Made by a program: the position numbers. Positions 30,001 to 33,000 of a DNA stretch of 38,324 bases are shown here, piece after piece; the stretch's first letter is position 1, and each line of letters starts with the position of its first letter. The stretch lies in IMG/VR virus record IMGVR_UViG_2718218135_000002, positions 1 to 38,324 of that record; one strand, given 5' to 3'. This stretch comes from a virus. Taxonomy: Duplodnaviria; Heunggongvirae; Uroviricota; Caudoviricetes.

Positions 30001-33000
30001 GACAGACTCAACAGTCGAACAGCGCGCCACCTCTGCAAAGGTACATCCTCAGCAAGACCCTAACAACCCGTTTGCACAACTGGAAGCACAGTCATCCGAA
30101 CAAGTATCGGCATCAGGCGTGCAGTCAGACCCAAATAATCCATTTGCTCAGATTGAGCAGCAGGCAGCCAGTCAGCAGCCACCTCAACCCGTAAGTTCTG
30201 TCGCACCGAAACCTGTTCAGCAGCAAGGCGGAATAATGTCTGACCTTGGTAATGGACTTGCTGAAACCGGGCGCGGCTTACTACAGGCAGGAATCAACGT
30301 AGCGAACATACCTGCTGAACTCACTGATGCTGTAACAAGCGCGGCGGCTTGGGCTGGCGGTAAACTCGGCATTGGCGATGGTACATATCAACCAGCACCA
30401 CGAGTAACAACGCAGGGATTAGAGCAGGACTTTGGCCTTCAGCAAGGCGCGCTGACTCCACAAACGACAGAGGGGAGGGTATTTGCTGAAGCATTGCCTT
30501 ACCTCACTCCTGCTGGCGTTGAGAGAGCGGCAACACAGGCACCAACACTTGCTGGTCGAATTGCTCAGGGGGCAACTCGCCTCCTCGCAGAAAACGCAGT
30601 TGGATCACTTGCTGCAAACAGTGCGAAAGATGATGCGGAAGCACTCGCCACCGATTTAGGCGTTGGTGTACTTACTGGCGGTGCTATTAACGCTGCCGGA
30701 CGTGGATTAGGTGCTGCTTATCGTGGTGTTCGTGGTGCTATCGCGCCAGAAGCACAGCAAGCTATCAGATTTGCAGAGCGTGAAGGAGTTCCTCTGCACA
30801 CCACAGACCTGTTACAGCCTACTTCCCGCGTCGGAAAAATGGCGCAGACTACAGCAGAAAATATTCCTCTGGCTGGCACAAGCGGAATGAGAGCAACGCA
30901 ACAGGAAGCGAGAAGCCAGTTGGTGCAGAGATTTGCTGATAAATTCGGTGAGTATGATCCATCTGTTGTTATTGACAGCCTTAAAGCGAAAACATCAGGA
31001 ATTCGTCGTGCCGCCGGTAATCGACTGGAGCAGGTTCAGAATGCTATGGCTGGAGTAAACATTCAGCCTGCGCGAGCAATTCAGCAGATTGATACAGAAA
31101 TATCTAATCTGCAGAAGCTTGGTAAGGTAGCTGATAACGAGACAATTTCAAAACTTCAGTCATATCGTGATGAGCTTGTTCGCAATGCTGGCCCTGATGG
31201 TCCGGTTAATCTGGATTTGAAGCAATTAAGCGATCTGCGAAGCCAGTTCAGAATGGACGTGAAGGGGGAGCGACCCGTGTTACCAAACCGTTCCGATGCC
31301 GCCATTCAACGTGTTTACAAGGCGATGACCGACGATATCAATGGTGCCATTGGTCAGAATCTTGGCAACGATACTCTCCGTAAATATCAGCAGGCCAATG
31401 CCGTCTACGCTGACGAAGCGGCGAAACTAAAGAATACCAGGCTGAAGAATGTTCTCATGAAAGGAGACCTGACGCCGGAAGTTGTCAACAACATGCTATT
31501 CAGCAAGAACAAATCGGAAATTAAGACGCTGTATAACTCAGTTGGTCGTGTTGGCAGGGCGCAAATGCGCAATGGCATCATTGGAAAGGCGATGGAGAAA
31601 TCTGGCGGATCCCCTGACCAGTTCCTTCGGCAGCTTAACATCCTGCAAAACCAGACTGGCATCACATTTAAAGGTCAGGATGCTGCTTATCTGAAAGGAT
31701 TGAAAAACTACCTTCAATCAACGCAGCAGGCTGCAAAAGCGGCTGTAACAACACCCACAGGCCAGCAAACCATCCCGTTCATTATCGGGTATGGGACGGC
31801 AATGAACCCTGCAACAACTGGCGCAGCGGTAAGCTACGGACTTCTTACTCGCGCCTACGAGAGCGAGCCATTCAGAAATGCAATGCTCCGAATGGCAAAC
31901 ACACCACGCGGATCAACAGCGTTTGAGAAAGCCATGCAGCAGGCGCAAAAGGCCATTAACGCCCTGACTCAGGGTGCCAAGTCTGATGCATTGTCAGAAT
32001 AGCTTCGCAAACACCAGGAACGTGCAAAAACCAAATATGTAGAACGCAATATTCAGCATATCTCTTTGCATAAATCCTCCGTAACTGATGGTTAGCTGCT
32101 GTCTTTTTTATATAGCTCTTTGAGCGTATCAAAGACAATTTTCTTAACCATATCAGATTGTTGTTCTGCCATACGCTCTGCATCGTCAATGTAAACTGAT
32201 GCAGAGCTTTGTTTATCCAATGATTCTTCAATCGCTGCAATTATCTCTGAGTTCAGCGACCTGTTATTCATCTTCGCACGCTGCTTAATTTTCGCGTGGA
32301 GTTCATGCGGAAGTCTCAAGTGAAACTGCGCCTCGTCGTATTTGCTGTACATCCTTGATGCCTCACCAGTTGGGTGGAATGGCATCGTAACCTACTGGAT
32401 AAATACTCAATAGTACCATTTCGGTATGCAATCACATCATGGTTGCATCATATCATTCGTCTGGAGCAATGAAATGTCAGATATCACCGCAAATGTTGTG
32501 GTAAGCATGCCTTCGCAACTCTTCACTATGGCGCGTTCTTTTAAAGCGGTTGCCAATGGCAAAATTTATATCGGAAAAATTGACACTGACCCGGTAAATC
32601 CTGAAAACCAGATTCAGGTTTATGTAGAGAATGAAGACGGTTCTCACGTTCCTGTTTCGCAACCAATCATCATTAATGCTGCTGGTTACCCCGTATATAA
32701 CGGACAGATTACCAAGTTCGTAACTGTACAGAATCACTCCATGGCTGTATATGATGCGTATGGCGCACAACAATTCTATTATCCTGATCTACTGAAATAT
32801 TCTCCAGACCAGTTAAGGGCTGAGCTTTCTGGCCCTGATGGCGCATCTCTGGTTGGTTATGGAGGCACAACCGTAAAGATTGAGCTGGAGATCTTGAAAG
32901 CTACACATGATTCATTAATTGATAAAACAGGATTTAACGCTATTGGCCGCTTTCTCAATCTTTCAGAGCTTCGCTCCTGTGTTCCGGAGGAGGCAGGGCA

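Follow-up and report, generated by a model that had tools for sequence, protein, structure and literature searches.

The textbook repressor Mnt is known only for its control of the phage P22 antirepressor, and a P22-like prophage that carries mnt beside its tailspike gene, with neither arc nor ant, raises the question of what the protein is kept for. We examined this locus in IMG/VR record IMGVR_UViG_2718218135_000002, a 38,324-nucleotide stretch of DNA from a tailed virus (Caudoviricetes) that was analysed over its full length and is called the window below. It is a P22-like (Lederbergvirus) prophage, and its closest phages are IME10 (96% identity over 801 bp) and Sf101 (97%). A preliminary description of the window had suggested that Mnt was either kept as a regulator of its own transcription or of a tailspike promoter, or left behind by an ant deletion. 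Our data demonstrate that mnt is under purifying selection and maintained, and is no decaying relic. The sequence further indicates that its product is probably a functional repressor of the Mnt family, expressed by the prophage, which binds at 32413-32427 and regulates its own promoter. The gene and the predicted elements that support this interpretation are:

32092-32352, minus strand: mnt-like gene encoding 86 amino acids (aa) plus a stop codon, N-terminus MYSKYDEAQFHLRLP..., with Pfam and PDB matches.
32384-32389, minus strand: predicted -10 hexamer of the mnt promoter (Pmnt), TACGAT, aligning with the P22 Pmnt -10 TATCAT.
32405-32410, minus strand: predicted Pmnt -35 hexamer, TTGAGT, aligning with the P22 Pmnt -35 TTGAGA.
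32413-32427: candidate Mnt operator, GTACCATTTCGGTAT, aligning with the P22 operator Omnt, AGGTCCACGGTGGACCT; its core, TACC-N5-GGTA, occupies 32414-32426.

Profile and structure searches confirmed that the gene encodes a Mnt homologue, as initially claimed. The open reading frame (ORF) at 32092-32385 (97 aa) matches the Pfam families Arc (PF03869; 1.1e-14, 54.4 bits against a cut-off of 20.4) and, over residues 68-93 of 97, Repressor_Mnt (PF11423; 3.3e-14, 52.7 bits against a cut-off of 20.9), and the protein matches PDB entries 1MNT (5e-19) and 1QEY (1.7e-8), both of which are solved pieces of P22 Mnt. The protein comprises an N-terminal ribbon-helix-helix domain followed by a C-terminal Mnt tetramerisation helix, and it shares 49% identity with P22 Mnt. 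Translation most likely starts at ATG 32352 (86 aa) rather than at the in-frame ATG 32385, since GAGG lies 8 nt 5′ of the former, the latter falls within the predicted Pmnt -10, a stop codon closes the extension in relatives of the phage L type, and at most one of seven polymorphisms in the extension occurs at a third codon position. The 97-aa form was rejected on these grounds. Matches to the HicB and FitA profiles are limited to the shared fold. We also rejected a role in a defence system or as a type II antitoxin because PADLOC returned no match and no toxin gene is adjacent, only 89 bp separating the mnt stop from the convergent gene 16 homologue. Mnt homologues, Sf101 gp14 (L001 3009-3302) among them, carry the label 'partition protein ATPase' or 'chromosome segregation ATPase' both in PHROGs (PHROG 795) and in the RefSeq records of phages; this label is a propagated mis-annotation, as no ribbon-helix-helix protein of 86 aa can be an ATPase.

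A close mnt relative is present on 227 contigs of IMG/VR, and selection was assessed on the best 80 of these 227, all at least 95% identical. The gene is intact in 79 of the 80, with a premature stop in one allele, and the 48 DNA alleles yield a synonymous polymorphism (pS) of 0.092 and a nonsynonymous polymorphism (pN) of 0.012, corresponding to a pN/pS of 0.12. The Mnt recognition strand does not vary among these 80 relatives. That Mnt has been kept is therefore borne out by its pN/pS and by the 79 intact alleles. A 561-bp block comprising mnt, the divergent spacer and the tailspike start is present, over at least 80% of its length, in at least 158 of 5426 complete E. coli genomes; the layout, which had been presented as unusual, is thus common, and it has already been published.

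With the tailspike starting at ATG 32474 and mnt at ATG 32352, the divergent spacer is 121 bp long. It was compared by alignment with six sequences, the annotated mnt-arc spacer of P22 and five further mnt spacers that adjoin a tailspike gene. In the window and in P22 alike, 10 nt separate the centre of the operator from the edge of the Pmnt -35, and the two Pmnt hexamers are 15 bp apart in the window versus 17 bp in the variants of VSe13 and EC20. The candidate operator follows the consensus RTACCR-TYT-YGGTAY, and relatives carry the more symmetric versions ATACCATTTTGGTAT and TACCGTTTCGGTA. Its nucleotide diversity (0.007-0.008) is the lowest in the spacer, compared with 0.016 for the whole spacer and 0.042 at third codon positions of mnt. 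The TACC-N5-GGTA core occurs once in the window (0.1 expected by chance), and the operator 15-mer is found in exactly one copy per locus in 134 related loci; a search for a second operator elsewhere in the phage revealed none in the window and none within ~5 kb in these 134 loci. The tailspike ATG lies 47 nt past this site. Taken as a whole, the alignment and the conservation pattern make GTACCATTTCGGTAT at 32413-32427 the likely Mnt operator. Self-regulation, one of the two roles initially envisaged, is plausible because mnt is under purifying selection and both the operator and the Pmnt homologue are conserved.

The recognition strand differs from that of P22 at three of the four positions that we take to be base contacts in P22 Mnt (Arg2 to Tyr, His6 to Gln and Asn8 to His), and Arg10 is kept. 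Strand and half-site pair up in three classes, PHFNFR with GGTCCAC in P22, PQFNLR with AGACCAC in L, ST160 and 720R6, and AQFHLR with RTACCR in the window. Judged from these pairings, the window Mnt is a separate specificity class in which the recognition strand and the operator half-sites have both changed. It is established that the N-terminal strand determines Mnt specificity (Knight and Sauer 1989).

The other proposed target, a tailspike promoter, fared less well. A consensus promoter scan of 31900-32600 returned no plus-strand site. We scored the spacers with a simple sigma-70 position weight matrix (PWM), whose hexamer frequencies came from the literature, using shuffled spacers as a control (median best score of 7.0). 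The P22 ant promoter (Pant) and P22 Pmnt score 16.7 and 14.3, respectively, and the Pmnt homologues of six tailspike-adjacent modules, the top leftward match in every one, score 8.5-11.7, whereas the best rightward candidates in the six modules reach 4.1-6.8. The highest-scoring rightward candidate of the window, ATGGCA-17-AATACT (6.8, below the shuffled median), is broken by a 2-nt insertion or deletion in a sister variant, and rightward hexamers shift position between variants. A rightward sigma-70 promoter in the spacer was consequently rejected, and repression of a tailspike promoter by Mnt is not supported by the sequence, although a weak promoter may be present.

The reported lack of arc and ant holds over the whole window. 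Only mnt was matched in the 38 kb by tblastn with seven queries (Arc and Ant of P22, two further types of each and a 96-aa 'antirepressor'), and Pfam scans of 30 further ORFs of the early region detected no Arc, ANT, Bro-N or P22_AR domain. The same scans recovered the usual early genes of lambdoid phages, among them RecT, cIII, S24 repressor, CII, DnaB, NinB, Dam, NinX, RusA and Q. A hidden arc or ant was rejected on the strength of these searches. Rfam gave no match in 31800-32700 at E values up to 1, and so no sar or other known RNA family, and the window has no ant start region with which a sar antisense RNA could pair. None of the immI features arc, ant, strong Pant and sar is therefore found at this locus.

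Relative to Sf6, the module extends as follows:

32072-32458: mnt module, in place of which Sf6 has an unrelated segment of ~77 bp, with homology on both sides.

By blastn, identity with Sf6 is 96% up to 32071 and 86% from 32458-32459 on; these values correspond to Sf6 genes 13 and 14, respectively, at the junctions. Sf6 and g341c have the same flanking late genes with no gene between those for the ejection protein and the tailspike. The module resembles P22 Mnt and immI in its two-domain protein, the position of its leftward promoter, an operator beside the Pmnt -35 and a site between the gene 16 and gene 9 homologues. Unlike immI, it comes without arc, sar, ant or a strong Pant and has the half-site RTACCR instead of GGTCCAC; P22 has arc-ant between the operator and gene 9, whereas the window operator runs directly into the tailspike leader. 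HK620, with the same flanking late genes, retains only terminator stubs, which its annotation describes as what remains of mnt and ant.

Phages L, ST64T, ST104 and ST160/SE1 share with the window an mnt gene divergent from gene 9 (~135 bp) without arc or ant. They differ from it by the PQFNLR strand, the operator AAGACCACCGTGGTCTT, a further small gene and an mnt 3′-end terminator; in the window, mnt is the sole gene of the insert, has another specificity and faces a different, 121-bp leader. The closest matches are Sf101 gp14 and its unannotated counterpart in IME10, which are 98-99% identical at the protein level and have a spacer identical to that of the window (Sf101) or one base off (IME10). 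Villafane et al. 2008 (PMC2629481) named the variable region the 'ant moron' and reported that ST64T, ST104 and Para1 carry only mnt and one unknown gene; they also suggested that the moron may alter how often late transcripts reach the tailspike gene, with the possible involvement of Mnt and Arc. The window fits this definition in that a variable segment with no part in morphogenesis separates its homologues of gene 16 and gene 9 and is absent from Sf6 at the same junctions. Its mnt, which has the opposite orientation and a predicted Pmnt homologue, might be expressed independently of the late operon. The mnt-only layout is thus already known, and the window adds a member that differs in specificity and has the moron in its smallest form, mnt alone. 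Our literature search found no functional study of an orphan Mnt, only comments in Villafane et al. and in the phage L paper, according to which the L-type mnt may have taken on another function or may be a remnant (PMC2629481; doi 10.1101/2020.10.05.325894).

A context survey covered 158 IMG/VR loci, 155 of which have upstream DNA to examine. A tailspike start lies within 160 bp of a Mnt-type gene in 139 of the 155, and in the remaining 16 mnt and the tailspike are separated by an insert (261-728 bp) that lies behind the old tailspike start. In no locus of the 155 does an intact arc or ant separate mnt from the tailspike; an ant homologue is found on the far side, beyond the mnt 3′ end, in 53 loci, of which 31 also have arc. 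Among named phages, mnt abuts gene 9 directly in L, ST160, 720R6, Sf101, IME10 and VSe13, and no arc or ant intervenes in Salmonella phages L, ST160 and VSe13 or in coliphage 720R6. Across three specificity classes and two host genera, the mnt module keeps its place beside the tailspike, with or without an ant cassette elsewhere.

The 16 inserts do not represent hidden cargo: most consist of a reverse-oriented HNH endonuclease gene and a replacement tailspike after codon 7 of the old tailspike gene, one contains an Ant fragment and one a P22-type spacer. In the relatives L017, L022, L025, L026, L039, L053, L068, L075, L076 and L078, the old tailspike breaks off after its first seven codons (ATGTCAGATATCACC) and gives way to a reverse HNH gene of ~165-180 aa and then to a different tailspike with its own leader, which looks like tailspike replacement linked to a homing endonuclease. 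L153 carries the last 110 ant codons and the terminator behind a window-type operator, and L082 a whole P22-type ant-9 spacer in the same position. In the ant-9 spacer of P22 itself, AAAATTCACCGTAGCCA is present twice in direct orientation on the stretch from the ant terminator to gene 9 (L005 4543-4560 and 4654-4671), and the related motif CCGTAGCCAYGCTGCGGCGATTCC lies 3′ of the operator in every 135-bp spacer; on these alignments the motif appears to behave like a recombination junction.

E. coli prophages with two-repressor ant morons (EC20 p3, E. coli HS and many IMG/VR contigs) have the same N-terminal DNA-binding domain, operator, Pmnt and tailspike-adjacent position as the window. They differ from it in an 84-aa Mnt variant with a different C-terminal helix and in an additional, separate cassette. 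This cassette encodes a 106-aa Arc-family repressor, arc, ant of the P22AR type and two further genes, and has a promoter and a palindrome of its own. The EC20 p3 cassette (L010 338-455) shows the classical layout of Pant and operator, TTGACA-16-TAAATT with a PWM score of 14.1 followed by the perfect 16-bp palindrome TTGGTTCTAGAACCAA, which is presumably the operator of the 106-aa repressor; its tailspike-adjacent module has the operator only and no such promoter. The EC20 record that contains this P22-like prophage is labelled a 176-kb plasmid ('plasmid p3').

We propose a model in which the prophage makes Mnt from Pmnt and a Mnt tetramer would occupy the single operator, which precedes the Pmnt start by ~43 bp and the tailspike ATG by 47 bp, and would thereby set its own level. 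With arc, ant and a second operator missing, the only position open to Mnt in cis would be the entrance to the tailspike leader. More speculatively, the bound tetramer might bar non-antiterminated rightward transcription from the tailspike gene; such transcription could arise from a weak residue at the position of Pant or from upstream read-through, and the tailspike would be made from the late antiterminated transcript only. We assign a probability of roughly 0.45 to the reading that the locus houses a functional repressor module of the Mnt family rather than an immI region or a relic, with the proposed tailspike gating included. The gating taken separately, in which the output of the module is to keep non-antiterminated transcription out of the tailspike, is more doubtful.

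Several observations weigh against this model. The spacer offers no credible rightward promoter to repress, so that the gating would have to act as a roadblock or on a weak promoter. It is not evident that a lysogen pays for expressing the tailspike, and the gene is followed by a proper terminator, which makes the selective benefit of gating questionable. The window Pmnt, with its 15-bp spacing and PWM score of 8.5, is only modestly above the shuffled median. The linkage of mnt and the tailspike could also merely mark a place where inserts are tolerated (Villafane et al., PMC2629481).

Another regulatory site had been put forward for the same spacer:

32426-32448, plus strand: inverted repeat ATGCAATCA-CATCA-TGGTTGCAT, including ATGCAA at 32426-32431 and TTGCAT at 32443-32448.

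On that reading, Mnt bound to this ATGCAA-N11-TTGCAT repeat would repress a tailspike promoter in the 120-bp spacer. The repeat exists and can even be lengthened to arms of 9 nt that include one G.T position and enclose a 5-nt loop, and most arm changes among its 12 distinct natural versions preserve pairing: five one-sided changes keep the pair (mostly G.U-type), two break it and none is compensatory. These pair-keeping counts are not in excess over the shuffle control, and dinucleotide shuffles of the spacer produce a perfect 6-nt inverted repeat (3-20 nt loop) in 43% of cases and a 9-nt one with at most one mismatch in 18%. The repeat is restricted to the 121-bp form of the spacer, as a P22-type leader of the tailspike takes its place in the 135-bp forms, which go with the same DNA-binding domain of Mnt, and it sits downstream of the position aligned with Omnt. 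As plus-strand RNA it folds with -9.4 kcal/mol (z -2.85 locally, z -1.3 in a 76-nt context), and a G.T position that tolerates G.U-type changes fits an RNA stem better than a protein-binding palindrome. We rejected it as an operator given its chance-level occurrence, its lack of conservation across variants and of compensatory change, and its wrong position; it may at most form a small hairpin in the tailspike leader. With no rightward promoter to act on either, regulation through this repeat is extremely unlikely. The view that mnt is a neutral leftover of immI, whose degradation after arc and ant loss is yet to come, draws on the Ant C-terminal fragment of L153 and the P22-type spacer of L082 behind the same operator, on Pant-equivalent hexamers that appear degenerate and on the single premature stop among 80 alleles. 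It is very hard to reconcile with a pN/pS of 0.12 at a pS of 0.09, with an operator that is the most conserved part of the spacer and with an intact gene in hundreds of prophages of two host genera. Moreover, the module persists at the tailspike in the 53 loci with ant on the other side (31 with arc), and a real remnant, as in HK620, consists of terminators only; a passive remnant of an ant deletion, as first suggested, is thus not supported.

In P22, prophage Mnt represses ant on the incoming genome, and Ant inactivates the repressors of several lambdoid phages. The window Mnt could by analogy provide immunity in trans, silencing the antirepressor promoter in relatives with the same operator, whether superinfecting or co-resident, and shielding the prophage's own main repressor from foreign Ant. 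Besides the P22 precedent, antirepressor cross-talk between prophages is documented in the literature, and such a role would account for purifying selection without a target in cis. However, no arc/ant cassette lies behind an operator of the window type in the 155 loci, nor in the 116 loci among the matches listed of an operator 16-mer scan of the collection (73 with an adjacent mnt-like gene and 43 chance occurrences, none with an adjacent Arc or Ant); an operator in front of an ant gene elsewhere was thus not found among these matches. The ant cassettes of the same genomes moreover use a different repressor and palindrome, and we consider immunity in trans quite unlikely. Much the same low probability attaches to control of tailspike dosage by convergent transcription, whereby leftward transcripts from Pmnt would collide with the late transcript and reduce the proportion of polymerases that reach the tailspike, with Mnt merely tuning Pmnt. 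The absence of a predicted terminator between mnt and the convergent gene 16 homologue and the constant position of the module just 5′ of the tailspike agree with this idea, but the geometry varies, since mnt is followed by a terminator in the P22, L and 720R6 types. Sf6 and g341c assemble normally without the module, and P22 without mnt-ant is viable.

Among the matches listed in the scan of the collection, seven unrelated viral contigs (L175, L180, L193, L200, L220, L227 and L270) each contain two GTACCRTTTYGGTATG 16-mers at a spacing of exactly 515 bp, and no homologue of Mnt, Arc or Ant lies close to them. The remaining features of the locus are:

29609-32002, plus strand: gene 16-type ejection protein gene, 797 aa, with an N-terminal lytic transglycosylase domain (Pfam SLT, 2.8e-25) and a 3′ end 96% identical to Sf6 gene 13.
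32357-32386: second inverted repeat, GATGCC-N18-GGCATC, extending from the mnt Shine-Dalgarno region to the Pmnt -10.
32474-34267, plus strand: tailspike gene, 597 aa (Pfam Head_binding, 4e-65, residues 1-113), with a GGAG Shine-Dalgarno sequence at 32463-32466.
34290-34308, plus strand: intrinsic terminator after the tailspike gene and before a convergent gtrC-like gene (7-bp stem with 5 GC pairs, T run).

The second repeat is unique in the window (0.09 expected); its arms are kept in the window, 720R6 and L/ST160 spacer types and not in P22. Its minus-strand fold has -17 kcal/mol (z -2.2), and the inner part can fold over the ribosome-binding site. For the tailspike, a mechanical ORF call starting at the upstream ATG 32426 was set aside in favour of ATG 32474. 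The possibility that the tailspike is silenced to spare the convergent gtr genes from read-through was rejected, as a good terminator lies 3′ of the tailspike.

The last late genes before mnt are a gene 20-like ORF and the gene 16-type gene. The 70 bp 3′ of the latter (32003-32071) are ~93% identical to Sf6 (L003 2104-2172) and recognisable in VSe13, whatever follows, and by this comparison are the conserved non-coding tail of the late operon. The prophage repressor ORF at 7771-8643, listed with 290 aa, has its HTH_3 domain from residue 83 and its S24 peptidase domain from residue 156, and its start is probably placed too far upstream. At the left end of the window, 1-1248 encode a complete 415-aa sugar/proton symporter of the LacY family (Pfam LacY_symp, 1.3e-193), a host gene that flanks the prophage, and an integrase ORF lies at the right end; no tRNA genes were found in the window.

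The locus may also bear on the origin of the P22 arrangement. Mnt-family repressors might have had an ancestral job without the antirepressor, tied to the tailspike through insulation from non-late transcription or through dosage, and the P22 order mnt-arc-ant-9 would have arisen by insertion of arc-ant into an mnt-tailspike module that was already there, so that orphan mnt genes would not be what is left of immI. This scenario is allowed because Mnt proteins of three specificity classes, in two host genera, are all encoded immediately beside the tailspike, because mnt stays, under purifying selection, even beside a complete second ant cassette with its own repressor, and because the P22 ant-9 spacer has a duplicated junction motif; we nevertheless regard it as unlikely.

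Taken alone, the window is an ordinary instance of a published layout. Across the family, hundreds of prophages of E. coli, Shigella and Salmonella carry an intact Mnt that is under purifying selection, has no obvious target and is always found at the tailspike, which suggests that the protein has a second function. Our comparison also indicates that the operator specificity of the Mnt family has diversified into at least three protein/site pairs, and it sharpens the question of why P22-like phages retain Mnt at the tailspike with no antirepressor to control.

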